Below, piece after piece: positions 10,595 to 16,855 of a stretch of DNA of 64,000 nt; position 1 is the stretch's first letter, and every line of letters begins with the position of its first letter. Origin of the DNA: Lytechinus pictus (taxonomy: Eukaryota). The notes under the pieces are model-generated. The model had not been told where the DNA came from and did no database searches. It saw only the letters and a list, made by a program, of their open reading frames with translations. The position numbers and the translations under genes were made by a program. Location: NCBI RefSeq assembly GCF_037042905.1, contig NC_087250.1:21516001-21580000 (forward strand). The letters run 5' to 3'.

Positions 10595-10975
10595 TTAACA
10601 TTATCACTATCGGTGCCCTTGGCACTGTTAGTGGATAGTTCAATCATTAGCGCTAATGCCAGCTTCTGTGCGATCTTGTAATATTAGTTTAACAGCGCTA
10701 GCTAGTGATTGGGCTAACATCATGCTCCTGCAGTCCTGTGCGGGCAATACCTCACTAATAGTGCTATTAGCGATTAGTGCTCTGTTAGTGTTAACAACGT
10801 CTCTGCGCGGCCGGTACTTATTCATCAATGGATTATATTCTACTGCTGTTATCTTAAATGATTATCGATTAATATAATGTGATTTGGTATAACAAAAGTA
10901 AGCAAATATTTATGAAATAAAACATGATGGATTATATGAATTTATTTCTCTAGCAATTATCTAGCATTAAAATAC

Positions 10976-12546
10976 CTTTTGTTTCAGTTCTCTTGGAAGA
11001 TTTCGCATCCCAACTACAGTATACACTGTTGGCGATTGCAAAAGCATATTTTGTGACGTCACACACCTTCGAACCAAGGATGACACATTCCCATCGCTAA
11101 CCCCAGACTCTGATGAACAGTCTAAGAGAATACGATAACGCTCACTCTCGGATAAATAACTAGTTGTCAGAAGCGTCTCCATTATTCGAATACAGAGTCT
11201 GTTCTTTGTGCCAGCAGCAAAACGAATGAGATTTTCATAATCGCCAACATTTCTTTTAATCTTTCGCAACACTTGGTCTAACTTAGAAATCTTCAAATTC
11301 AGCTTGAAACTACTTGTTTTATGAGCTAGGAACTTCCCGGCTGCATGTTCTTGGGCAAGTTTGTGATAAAATTCTATAGTAGTAGAATAGGTTTCGTTAG
11401 TTTGAGGAAAGTGTTCGCTTGATACAGTTGTCTTGGATACTATCCCTAACTGACATGCCTTATCGAGGACAGATGGAATCTTCTGAAAATCACGAGGGGT
11501 AAATACCAACTTCTTAGAATCAGCAAGTAGACCAGTGAGAGCAACTTTACCCAGTTTGTGGATTATTTCGTCCAGGGTTTCAGGTGTGAATAACCCATCG
11601 GTCCGTTCATTTGCGTGGTGGCTTAAAAACACGTTTACTTTGTCGAGTAATGCTGTTTGAGTCGAAGTCTCACTGTCAAGACGACCTACAGACCATAAGT
11701 GACATACCATGAGGCAGAATAGTGGTGTTTTTACTAGTTCCTCTATCAGTGGATTTGTCTCGAGGTAAAACTTCAGACCATCTGCTATCATTGGTTGCTG
11801 AATCCGGGAAGAAAAGAACCTGTCAATGTAATCACATGAGCTCTCTTTGGAGAATCCGTCGATCGCCATCTTCGTGTATACCCTTGGTAGATCCCCTTGA
11901 CTGAAAATGTTTTCTAAGTGAGGTCGTGATGTTACAAGAACTCGACATTGTTGAAACATTTCCCATCGGAGAATGTTCATGATATTACTCGAAGAAGAGA
12001 TACCAGCATACTCATCGAGCCCATCTAGTACAATATGACAGATTCCCTGATGCTGCCTGATGAAACTTTCTAGCCCCTCTGGCGTCAGATCGTCAACATC
12101 ACTCAGGAGTTGTGATATGATGGCTTCTCCGATCGATGTACTATGGCTTGTGTTTCGAAACTTGACAACAAACAGCAGTGGCAAGTCCTCTAATCCTGAG
12201 CCATCTTCTCTGTGAACCCAATCGTGCGCCATCTTAGCAACAGCTGTCGTCTTTCCTCGTCCAGCGGGAGCCGAAATAAGGATTCGAGATGGAAATTTTC
12301 CGTTTACTTTGGCTGAAAATATTTTTCCTGCAGAGCCTTGTAGTATTTCCTTTTCCTTAATATCTCTCCCACGATCGTCCTTCTTTACCATGGTAACAAC
12401 GGTGTGCATATCTTCAAACTCTGCATAATCATCTTTATCCCAAGGTTTCATTTGAATTTTACATAGCTGGTTGGAATATTTGTCCTCTAAGATTGTGCGA
12501 CATTTTCCAACAGTCAGAGAATCCGAAATTTTCTCACTGTATATAT
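10976..12546 (-). CDS. NLR gene, NACHT NTPase exon
   Basis: 533-aa ORF with Walker A APAGRGKTT, Walker B HIVLDGLDE, VLVTSRP, TPLFCLMVC and winged-helix motif FYHKLAQEHAAG. Acceptor ttccag (phase 1), donor AAG|GTATTT (phase 0). Confidence 0.95.
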
Positions 12547-13407
12547 CTGGAAGATGTAACAAAAACATTGAGCAAAGTGAGTTAAACTACGTAATATCTG
12601 CCCTTGCAAACAAAGTAAATACATGAACATGATTGATATAGGTAGTTAAAATATGAAGTCATTTAATACAATAGTAAACATGTCGAATGTGAAAAATACA
12701 AATCGGTAGAATGTGTACAAAAAGAAGCATCGAAACTTGTTGCAGATATATTTACCATGTTTACACTACTTGATTTTTTTAAGTCTCACCATACAATGAG
12801 TATTAAAAATACACATGATAAGGCCATTACAGCTTTATAAAATATGCCTTAATCATAATAAATTTTAAGGATATTATCGGTTCATATAGATAATTATATG
12901 TTCTGCGGTCTCCGCTATCAGATGACACCAAATAAGTTAAATTTGCGTCAATTAGAATATAATATTTGATAATTACATGCTCTTTTCATATACTGACGTA
13001 ATTATTAATAGATACAGCGTGTCCCCCTAAAATGTCCCTCTGACATAGGGCTAAGTTTATTCTACAATGTGGTAGCATTCTCAAATAAATGTTCATGAGT
13101 AGAAAGCACATGATCTGACTTCTATGGATATTTTATTAGTCGCGCTTCAGAAGTTTTGTAAACACACTCTTTTACGTAAAAGTGATGCATTTTAGTCCAT
13201 TCCAAGTTTGCAGCATTGATACATTTCTTCATTGTCTATGGCATATTAACTCCTCTTTTTACATCCAGGATCTAAATAGGAACATTTCCCTAATCATATC
13301 CAGGATCATCGAATCACAAACTTGGGTATGTTCCCAAGGACAAGAAACATAACAAATTAAGTTTGTTTGACGAAAGATAATGGGAATCGATGCACCAACT
13401 TGGAAAG

Positions 13408-15564
13408 AACAAGTGGAATGCATCCGGCGGTCTCACCTGCATCACGCGATTCAATAAAGCAGCAGTGCTGACTTTGAAAACTACTATAAAATAATTATTC
13501 AGTGATAATTTTGTTATTCTTATGTCCAAGTTTCATGAATCACATCGATTAACTTTCAAAGTTATGATGGTAATTCAACAGATTCCCCCAAATGGCCGAA
13601 GTTCATTGACCTTCGACGTTGGTCATGTGACGTGAAATTCGCACAGGATGTTCAGTGATACTTGATTACTCTTATGTCCAAGTTTTATGAACTATACCAA
13701 TAAACTTTCAGTTATGATGTTAATTCAACAAATGCCCCTAATTTTGCCAAAGTTCATTGACCCTAAGTGACCTTTGACCTTAATCAGGTGACCTGAAACT
13801 TCCACAGGATGTTCAGTGATACTTGATTATTTTTATGTCCAAGTTTCATGAATCAGATCTCTAAACTCTTAAAGTTTTGTTGGTAATTCAACAGATGCCC
13901 CCAATTTGGCCAAAGTTCATTTACCCTACATGTAAATGACATTTGATCTTGGTTTTGTGATGTGAAACTCGGGCAGGATAATCAGTAATACTTGATTAAC
14001 CTTTTGTCCAAGTTTCATGAACTAGGTATATATATTTTCCAAGTTATGATGACATTTCAAAAACTTAACCTTACGTTAAGATTTTGCTGTTGATTTCCCC
14101 AACATGGTCTTGGTTCATTGACCCTAAATGACCTTTGACCTTAGTCATGTGACCTAAAACTCAGGCAAGATGTTTAGACATACTTGATTAACATTATGGC
14201 CAAGTTTCATGAACTAGGTTCATATACTTTCTACGTTATGCTGTCATTTCAAAAACTTAACCTTCGGTTAAGATTTGATGTTGACGCCGCCGCACAGTGG
14301 GCTGGGGCGAAACAAAAGTGCGCCAAAAGTCATTTTGGGCAATTTCAGATTTTTAATTTTTGTCATGCCCAGCTGAAAGACAACACTTTGGAGAATACTT
14401 CAGCAAAATATTTAATTCGGGAATTTGCATAAAGGTTGTTAATTTCCTACCTCAAATCGTAAAATGTGACATTTTGCGAAATGCTGCGTGTATGACAACT
14501 TACTTGAAAAACAAGCAATTTCACGGGAGGTTTTTCATGTAGGAATCTGAAATGGCACCCACATGATCCTGATATATTCTTTTTTTCGTGTGAAATGGTT
14601 CAAATTAGATAAAAGACACATTTCAGGAGGTTTATAGAACAATTATTCCTCGAAATAGGCTGATAATCCATGTTTTTAGCATTTACATTAGAAACGCTTA
14701 TATTTCCGTGGATTTCCGTTTAAATTCTATCATCATCATTTTGCCAGATGTCTAAGCTTTAAGTCGATACCAAATTTAGCTGCCCGTTTTTGCCCGTTTT
14801 CATGTTAGAGCCGATTTTACTTGGCACAACACCCTCAAACCTGTTCAAAAACGGTCATTTTTATACCGCGCAGTCATCGCAGCGCACCGTGTGGGGTGTA
14901 CATTGCCGTTCATTTTTGCACGGCGAGGACGATTCCCCCTTCCATTCCATGAAAAAGACATGAATTCCGGGCATAATGCAAACAAAATAAAGGTTGATAA
15001 CGCAAATAAGGGCTACCCGCCCCTCTTCCAGAGATAAGATTTACTTGTAGAATGATTTCAGCCAAAAGCCCTCCTCACAGTAAAACATTCGTGGTCCTAT
15101 ATACTCTGCGTTTTACCCAAGTCTACACCGCTTGATAAAGCACGGTTAAGTATTTTTTTAATCTAATGATCACTTTGATGCCATTAATTATTTTCAGGAT
15201 CTCATACACACTTGTTAGGCATGTGAGAAGGATAAACCAACATTCACTCTGGTCAATCTTAAAGTAACACATAACACAAAGTTTATATATATATACACTA
15301 CACATTGTTTAGCGTCATTTGTCTTTTCACAGATAGGTTTTAAGTAGCCAATCAAAATTTGGTATCAAAGTGACGTCATATCGGCTTTAAATTATGTTCA
15401 GTCGATTCTACGCCCAAAATTACCCTTAATCAACACGTTAAAATAAAAATACAACACGGAATATAATTTTGGCGCACTTTCAACTCATTCTGGCCCACTG
15501 TGCGCCGCCGCCGTCGGAAAAGCGGCGCCTATAGTATCACTCTGCTATGCAGGCGAGACAAAAA
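13408..15564 (+). mobile_element. DINE-1/Helentron-associated (HINE)-like repeat with ~150-bp tandem cores, interrupted by Transib
   Basis: Starts AACAAG. Subterminal inverted repeat GTCTCACCTGCAT / ATGCAGGCGAGAC. Tandem TGACCTTTGACC...TCCAAGTTTCATGAA units. GC hairpin near the 3' end. Confidence 0.6.
14293..15502. mobile_element. Non-autonomous Transib-type transposon with RSS-like termini
   Basis: Ends CACAGTGGGC / GCCCACTGTG, shared inner TIR block AAAGTGCGCCAAAA, perfect 5-bp GC-rich TSD CGCCG. No transposase ORF. Confidence 0.85.
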
Positions 15565-16490
15565 TGTGAATGATGGATTAGTAAAATAAGCTGAAAAATA
15601 AAGGGCAATCCACAAGTTAATCACCCTATGCTAAAGGAAACTTTATAAAAAATGACTTTTTTATTTTAAATACTTATATTGAATTAACTTGACCACTGCA
15701 GCTTATCATCTAAAAAAAATAAAAACGAAAATGCTGTATTAGGCATGAATAAAGCATGAAACAGACATAATCCGCTGTCTTAATCATTGTGCATCTCCTT
15801 TTATCAAACATGAAATGAACTGTCAGATATTGTTTTTGCCCTTCTGAACATGCTCAAGGTGATGATTTGATGAGCCTGGTTAGATCATGGAGATGTTCAA
15901 AGGGGGTTGATATGCTAGAAAGTAAAGAACACACAGCAGTGCTGCATGCATGCAAACTTGGAATGGGCTGAAAACACTGTTACGCAATAGACCATGTAGA
16001 CTGTGTATTCAAAACCAGTGAAGAGAGACCAATTATTTTTCATAGAAGTTAAAACATGATATGAGCTTTCTAGTTCTGTACATTTCATTGAGAATAATTG
16101 TATTTCTTAACTAATTAAGCCGAATATCATAGGGACATTGTTTTGGGGATGCGCTGAAGAGCGTGCATTTTAAACATGAAGCCCCCCCCCCCCCCACAAA
16201 AAAAGGGGGAGAATTATAAGGGGTAATAAATGACAATGAATATTGATCTACGCCCCTGTTTGTTCATTATTTGTATAATGCTAATCAGGTTCACACACCT
16301 AAATCGGTTTATGACATTAATTTTCAAATCATAAAATTGAACAAATATATATATTCAACATGATTCCCTTGAATATAGCAAACGAAAAATCTGTTTTTAA
16401 TGGGGGAGCCGGGTCGGAAGTTCATGATACATATTGATGCAATATTCTCATTTCAATGTAAAAGATTTAGAAGGTCTGGATAAAACCAAC

Positions 16491-16796
16491 CTGGAGTATT
16501 CAATGTCTCTTTGAAATAAGTTTCAGCAAGCATGACAAGCTTGGCATCAATGAGAGCTTGTTTCAGCCTAGGATGCTGATTGGATGGCTCCACGGCCTGT
16601 CTCCAGTCAAACAGCATGTCACGTGTTCCATTGAACGTGACTCGGTATCCCTTGTTGTTAGTAGCTGTGTATCTATTTATGGCTGCTTGTTCGAATCCGA
16701 GTGTTCGTGCCAATGCCGCCATTTGTTCATCTGTCTCGATGTTTTCAGCAAGTTTACAGAGAAGATCATCGGTAATACCCCCTAGACTCTCCATAC
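16491..16796 (-). CDS. NLR gene, DEATH-domain exon
   Basis: ITDDLLCKLAENI...LARTLGFEQAAINRY...MLFDWRQ...LKQALIDAKLVMLAE fits a death-fold pattern. Donor CCA G|GTTGGT (phase 1) joins the NACHT exon in frame. An acceptor gatag lies 2 nt before the ATG at 16794, so an upstream exon is implied. Confidence 0.88.
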
Positions 16797-16855
16797 CTAT
16801 CGTGCGATAAATGAAATTAGATGATTTGATCTTTTAAAAATACATTTCTAGACTA

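Follow-up and report, generated by a model that had tools for sequence, protein, structure and literature searches.

Introduction

Transib transposons are characterised, in the description of Kapitonov and Jurka (2005; PMC1131882), by 5-bp target-site duplications, GC-rich targets and ends resembling recombination signals; according to the same paper, RAG-mediated transposition likewise gives 5-bp GC-rich target duplications. For sea urchins it reports an autonomous element, Transib1_SP (4,132 bp, a 676-aa transposase in two exons and a CGGCG duplication), and, in its Figure S4g, the non-autonomous Transib-N1_SP of the purple sea urchin, with copies flanked by CGGCG, CGACG and CGCCG duplications. 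Its insect families Transib5, Transib2_AG and TransibN1-N3_AG are described with a 5' end like the recombination signal sequence (RSS) RSS12 and a 3' end like RSS23. ProtoRAG and TransibSU also have CAC-type heptamer ends and 5-bp duplications and encode RAG1L and RAG2L; the sea-urchin RAG1L/RAG2L loci are reported, in the accounts cited, without terminal repeats (PMC4411706, PMC8355894). Here we describe an element at positions 14293-15502 of a 64,000-nucleotide stretch of Lytechinus pictus DNA (C6:21516001-21580000 in an 812-Mb assembly; hereafter the window), located in a gene of the NOD-like receptor (NLR) type. It is very probably a dead-end copy of a non-autonomous Transib family that entered a repeat-borne hot spot in an NLR intron and has no functional tie to the NLR gene. 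An earlier reading of this DNA (the original prediction) had considered it as a possible substrate for a Transib or RAG-like enzyme of the host, with a neutral intronic insertion as the default explanation. That default fits all the evidence presented below.

Results

Ends of the element and target-site duplication

The element is a non-coding DNA transposon of Transib type, 1,210 bp long and without assigned strand, and belongs to a middle-repetitive family of about 300 copies. It opens with the heptamer CACAGTG (14293-14299) and closes with the complement CACTGTG (15496-15502). The left terminal inverted repeat (14293-14328, plus strand) consists of a block containing the heptamer (positions 1-11), an 11-bp spacer and a 14-bp block, AAAGTGCGCCAAAA (positions 23-36); the right one (15467-15502, minus strand) has the same two blocks around another 11-bp spacer. 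Together the ends form an imperfect inverted repeat of 44 nt, flanks included, which is 75% complementary, positions 1-10 and 23-36 being perfect. At position 11 of the left end, T is found in the window copy alone and C in all 30 other aligned copies. The right end of the window copy (C6:21531467-21531502) shows no mismatch to the family right end. Read from the outside, the left end runs CACAGTG, GGCTGGGGCGAA (12 nt), ACAAAAGTG, and CCAAAA begins 23 nt past the heptamer at the left and right ends alike. This is the layout that the original prediction had described, and our analysis confirmed it.

The element is bordered by two copies of CGCCG (14288-14292 and 15503-15507, no strand assigned). 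Since the element is flanked by a CCG run, a direct repeat of as many as 8 bp would be compatible with the sequence. The length of the duplication was fixed by a paralogous empty site, L051, which lies 175 kb away and has one unbroken CGC run and no element. The flanks of L051 are 94.6% and 93.8% identical to those of the window, and their alignments overlap slightly where they join. The CGC repeat measures 14 nt in L051 and 8 + 11 = 19 nt in the window, therefore exactly 5 bp were duplicated. Both the exact heptamers and the 5-bp CGCCG duplication of the original prediction were in this way verified, on the sequence itself and by the empty site. The insertion postdates the split between the intron of this NLR gene and that of the neighbouring paralog L051.

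None of the 12 open reading frames (ORFs) of at least 45 aa in the element matched Pfam at E ≤ 1, and no coding sequence for RAG1L and RAG2L was found among them. The same search on 34 ORFs from three elements gave no Pfam match near any cut-off. The element differs in this respect from ProtoRAG and TransibSU, both of which are described as encoding RAG1L and RAG2L, but it resembles them in having ends with a CAC-type heptamer and duplications of 5 bp (PMC4411706, PMC8355894).

Relationship to published Transib families

The assignment to Transib was borne out: the end blocks are identical to those of Transib-N1_SP and the 5-bp duplications are of the CGNCG type. By these characters, and by the CAC-type heptamer that a conserved A-rich block follows within about 38 bp at both ends of the 31 aligned copies, we class the element as a non-autonomous member of the Transib superfamily. 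As far as Figure S4g of PMC1131882 displays them, positions 1-11 (CACAGTGGGCC) and 23-36 (AAAGTGCGCCAAAA) of Transib-N1_SP are identical to those of the window family at both ends, the duplications are of the same CGNCG type and length, and neither element is protein-coding. The two differ in the 11-bp spacer (positions 12-22), which in the window family also differs between left and right, and in length, the published copies spanning about 560-910 bp by their coordinates and those of the window family about 1.2 kb. On this comparison the window family is best regarded as a sister family of Transib-N1_SP that differs from it in the 11-bp spacer, and it may be named in Repbase already. It agrees with Transib1_SP, as published, in its kind of target (CGGCG being of the CGNCG form) and in host group, and by analogy an element of that kind is likely to be what mobilises it.

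The same end blocks recur in two further non-coding families of this genome, of which one measures about 1.9 kb (L055, L057) and the other is represented in L058. In both of these sister families and in the published Transib-N1_SP, the left and right ends alike read CACAGTGGGCC, 11 variable bases, AAAGTGCGCCAAAA. Of the 132 sister-family ends, the 100 that were listed include no exact match to the published Transib-N1_SP spacer.

The 1.9-kb family was located at L055:69-1955 and L057:3471-5461 (C8:18.57 Mb and C13:1.21 Mb), with CGTCG flanks in L055, and contributes most of the at least 132 genome ends that have a base other than A at position 18. A third end variant, with the spacer GGGGAAGAACT, starts at L058:74 (C11:197023), and the same end recurs at C11:941846 and C11:1173542. 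These three occurrences on the plus strand within 1 Mb of C11 may be a segmental duplication. In L058 a repeat of reverse-transcriptase/endonuclease type lies about 1 kb past the end, on the opposite strand.

Copy number, divergence and target preference

A DNA search with the element returned 45 scored matches among 545 first-look candidates. Of these 45, 40 extend over 98% or more of the element, with identities of 88-95%. With up to three mismatches allowed, the 36-nt ends occurred 285 times (left) and 361 times (right) in the genome, and reversed-pattern controls not at all. We aligned the 31 copies that match the window copy best, and these are not a random sample. They differ by 2.5-5.8% from their majority sequence; the window copy differs by 3.0% and has 20 deleted columns. 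The ends are nearly invariant, with 0.4% and 1.3% divergence versus 3.9% in the interior, a comparison that is biased by the choice of copies through end-to-end matches and is not a clean selection test.

The duplicated 5-mer is the same on both sides in 27 of the 31 copies and reads CGNCG in 24 of those 27. The remaining three intact duplications (CATCG, CAGCG, CACCG and CGGTG types) resemble decayed CpG. A preference for GC-rich targets is evident both from these duplications and from the nine of 31 copies that sit in a (CCG)n site.

The family and the repeat that hosts the window copy were also seen, at 93% identity or more, in DNA contigs of a second organism (run X5, organism B). Both therefore occur outside the species of the window as well.

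Insertion into a hot spot carried by an older repeat

The window copy is nested in another repeat, on the plus strand, whose left part (approximately 13408-14292, from flank similarity and read depth) contains internal tandem units of 161-192 bp and ends in the (CCG)n stretch, and whose right part (approximately 15503-15565, from flank similarity and reads) covers the last 60 bp or so to the 3' end. The left boundary at 13408 is a loose-end boundary with very high read depth, and at the 3' boundary reads continue into A-rich tails past 15564-15566. Read depth over this host repeat is hundreds of times that over the transposon. Many reads contain joints that skip about 1,210 bp; they are attributable to the thousands of uninterrupted host-repeat copies (depth 10^4 to 10^6) and are uninformative on excision or polymorphism at this locus. 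No read contig bridged either element junction with unique sequence.

Of the 31 aligned copies, nine (L001, L010, L011, L013, L014, L015, L016, L028 and L030) occupy one and the same site in the host repeat. This 30-nt site lies about 60 bp from the 3' end of the repeat. Intact examples of it number 1,687 genome-wide (up to three mismatches) and amount to about 0.006% of the genome, a fraction that received 29% of the sampled insertions. The (CCG)n stretch thus behaves as a genome-wide hot spot for the window family.

The flanks of these nine nested copies correspond over about 60 bp on the right and over several hundred bp on the left, as they would if host repeat and transposon had spread together as one composite unit instead of by independent insertions. 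The transposon does not, however, always face the same way within the host repeat (three copies as in the window, six opposite), and the duplicated 5-mers vary between copies (CGCCG, CGACG and CGGTG on the element strand). The host flanks, only 70-86% alike, are also far more diverged than the transposons, which are 91-95% alike, and this argues for independent insertions into an older repeat. Given in addition the 1,687 uninterrupted host sites, we rejected composite spread, which we hold to be highly improbable. Independent insertion into a pre-existing hot spot is the explanation retained here, and the presence of such a (CCG)n site in the NLR intron is sufficient reason for the location of the window copy.

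In a raw RNA run, the host repeat was heavily and strand-specifically represented.

Symmetry of the ends

The original prediction had likened the left end to a 12-RSS. One part of this stood: ACAAAA at 12-nt spacing was present in 30 of the 31 copies, the other one having ATAAAA, and it is part of the family consensus. The part that did not stand is the asymmetry that would make the two ends a 12/23 pair. At 12 nt from the heptamer the nonamer is matched at 6/9 positions on the left and 3/9 on the right, at 23 nt at 6/9 and 5/9 positions, and the A pair at nonamer positions 5 and 6 is present at both spacings and at both ends. The two ends do not combine a nonamer spaced by 12 ± 1 nt on one side with a nonamer spaced by 23 ± 1 nt on the other. 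Within ACAAAAGTG only ACA (positions 20-22) is specific to the left end of the family, and other families have CCC, GCA, ACT or ACC in its place. The AAAGTG that follows belongs to the 14-bp block (positions 23-36), which is equidistant from the heptamer at both ends in the four families compared, namely that of the window, its two sisters and, as published, Transib-N1_SP. Since the second block keeps this distance in all of them there is no 12/23 asymmetry, and the comparison indicates that the ends are symmetric in design.

The element therefore resembles the RSS of V(D)J recombination in its exact heptamer CACAGTG and in A-rich nonamer-like stretches at 12 nt and 23 nt, but differs from it in that the conserved second block is a single unit of 14 bp whose distance from the heptamer is the same left and right. 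The insect families with RSS12-like and RSS23-like ends offer a published precedent for a 12-RSS-like Transib end; as published they are truly asymmetric (PMC1131882), whereas the difference here amounts to three spacer bases. The signal resemblance of the window element is a known property of the whole Transib superfamily. That a RAG1-like enzyme of the host should take its unequal ends, with ACAAAAGTG at 12 nt on one side, for a 12/23-like pair, and somatically cut or excise intronic copies in immune genes, strikes us as scarcely credible. If true, it would constitute a pre-vertebrate analogue of signal-directed rearrangement.

The NLR gene and its tandem paralogs

The gene that contains the element is read on the minus strand. 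Its NACHT exon (10967-12546; C6:21527807-21528283) belongs to a frame of 539 aa that extends to 12586, the exon start being taken from the acceptor, and this ORF (10967-12586) matches Pfam NACHT above cut-off (E 3.4e-15, 56.7 bits). A Death-like exon (16491-16794) with a possible ATG at 16794-16792 and a donor after 16491 lies in the ORF 16453-16833, whose match to Pfam Death (E 5.9e-4, 20.4 bits) is below the curated cut-off of 22.6 bits; it has 67-68% protein identity in the paralogs L053 and L054. A GT donor (16490-16489) and an AG acceptor (12548-12547) would join the two exons in frame across a phase 1 intron (12547-16490), predicted from sequence, that contains the host repeat and the transposon. 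In the raw RNA run there was next to no depth over the Death-like and NACHT exons and no read confirming the splice. The location of the element between the Death and NACHT exons of an NLR gene was accordingly as originally described, with the splice inferred and the Death match below cut-off.

Six NACHT exons stand in tandem on the minus strand of C6 (21.015-21.53 Mb), and the gene is part of this array. In L053 and L054 the NACHT exon is preceded by the Death exon at a distance of just about 430 bp, compared with a predicted intron of 3,944 bp in the window, where the host repeat and the transposon account for the added length. Position between two coding exons and this lengthening of the intron, to which the host repeat contributes, are the features that co-option of the insertion, with an effect on splicing or regulation of the NLR gene, would have in its favour. 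The window copy is nevertheless no better conserved than the rest of its family (3.0% from the majority, 20 deleted columns) and has no ORF with a family match, so that we regard co-option as very unlikely.

Across the six tandem paralogs (L050-L054, C6:21.015-21.455 Mb, and window positions 11900-16833), the introns upstream of the NACHT exon are very unlike one another. Three array paralogs have no Death exon within 7 kb and two have it about 430 bp upstream. Between L051 and the window, the NACHT-exon stretch is 84.7% identical and the intronic host repeat 94%.

Distribution of the family relative to immune loci

The original prediction further held that copies at the same position in NLR paralogs could promote shuffling of effector domains, and it called for a comparison of NLR and Toll-like receptor (TLR) loci with background. 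Neither recurrence nor enrichment was found. The element was absent from the five other paralogs of the array, in each of which 7 kb upstream of the NACHT exon were examined. For the genome as a whole we used 169 distinct element places, those among the matches listed, out of about 300, with 73 NACHT matches and 23 TIR-domain matches as lower bounds. Of these places, only that of the window copy lies within 25 kb of one of the NACHT matches. When it is excluded, 0 copies were observed within 25 kb (0.75 expected), 4 within 50 kb (1.43 expected, P = 0.057) and 6 within 100 kb (2.36 expected, P = 0.033). No listed copy was found within 200 kb of the TIR-domain matches, the nearest being at 205 kb. 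A literature search of titles and abstract openings returned no publication joining Transib to NLR genes in sea urchin. We conclude that nothing ties the element to the function of the NLR gene.

These results bear directly on a somatic role, in which the signal-like ends would be used by a RAG1-like/RAG2-like enzyme of the host, or by an active Transib transposase, and excision or recombination would reshuffle NLR effector and NACHT exons. Because none of the five neighbouring paralogs carries the element there is no nearby partner for such shuffling, nor is there gene-level enrichment at NACHT or TIR-domain loci among the matches listed. In favour stand the heptamer, identical to that of V(D)J recombination, and the nonamer of the left end, 6/9 at 12-nt spacing in 30 of 31 copies, but the equal distance of the second block at both ends in four families leaves no 12/23 asymmetry, and the window copy itself has a private change in its first block. 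As to the enzyme, the genome contains open RAG1-like frames of 612-624 aa, and sea-urchin RAG1L is reported to recombine mouse signals together with mouse RAG2; in the same report, however, spRAG1L with spRAG2L had no recombination activity on mouse signals (PMC4840297). We give somatic use of the ends very little credence, and retain the neutral Transib insertion as our reading of the locus.

RAG1-like sequences in the genome

Over the genome, the Pfam RAG1 profile gave 22 candidates at E ≤ 0.001 and E ≤ 10, all of them RAG1-like genes or fragments. The family ends were absent from all 12 RAG1-candidate loci that were fetched. Five loci with rare ends held only two further non-coding families and insertions of other repeats. 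The Pfam RAG2 profile produced no candidate in the genome, yet the search controls were equally silent, so that this negative carries no weight.

Open RAG1-like frames of 612-624 aa, with Pfam RAG1 E values of 6e-72 to 4e-65, are found in L031, L032 and L033 (C182, C233 and C4:15674907-15676589) and end in a CCHC zinc knuckle. The copies on C182 and C233 are identical and may be an assembly duplicate or alleles. On C9, the locus L060 (C9:18156000-18165000, within C9:18143020-18173215) is a tandem repeat of 4.09 kb, with units 98% alike and no heptamer ends, each unit containing a degenerate fragment like the C-terminal RAG1 core (Pfam RAG1 E about 0.01-0.02). At L042:789-798 (C9:18142308-18142317, minus strand), CACAGTG is followed after 22 nt by ACAAAATCT, which looks like a 23-signal; a decayed fragment of RAG1-like type follows about 700 bp downstream, and the signal may end another Transib or RAG-like element.

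Discussion

The history that we propose for this locus begins with an older, very abundant repeat already present in the NLR intron, whose (CCG)n stretch near the 3' end was the target. A cut-and-paste insertion at this CGNCG-type site duplicated 5 bp. A Transib transposase, itself related to the RAG1 core, would mobilise the family in trans by reading the blocks at positions 1-11 and 23-36; it would presumably act by nick-and-hairpin cut-and-paste, the mechanism reported for the moth Transib enzyme (PMC4840297, citing Hencken et al. 2012). The copy would now be neutral intron DNA.

Several observations weigh against this account. Neither an autonomous partner nor an element or transposase like Transib1_SP was found in the genome by searches with the Pfam RAG1 profile and the element ends, which included no Transib protein query. 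All seven of the longer left-right end pairs examined, 2-5 kb apart, turned out to be the same element interrupted by other repeats, that of the L043 pair having reverse-transcriptase-like frames. Because no partner or transposase was found here, mobilisation by a Transib transposase is argued from the published family. Selection for mobility in recent times could explain why the ends diverge less than the interior, although the choice of copies biases that comparison. Lastly, copies are weakly in excess at 25-100 kb from NACHT matches, which may reflect repeat-rich NLR clusters, and the coordinate sets behind this count are partial for the element (169 of roughly 300) as well as for NACHT (73 being a lower bound).

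For immunity the finding has little import, since RSS-like Transib ends, 5-bp GC-rich duplications and a non-autonomous sea-urchin Transib were all published in 2005. Two modest lessons can be drawn for Transib itself. The fixed end blocks and the variable 11-bp spacer across families map what the transposase probably reads. The concentration of about 29% of the sampled insertions in about 0.006% of the genome represents a strong natural targeting preference, which is usable for the study of target choice by Transib and RAG.

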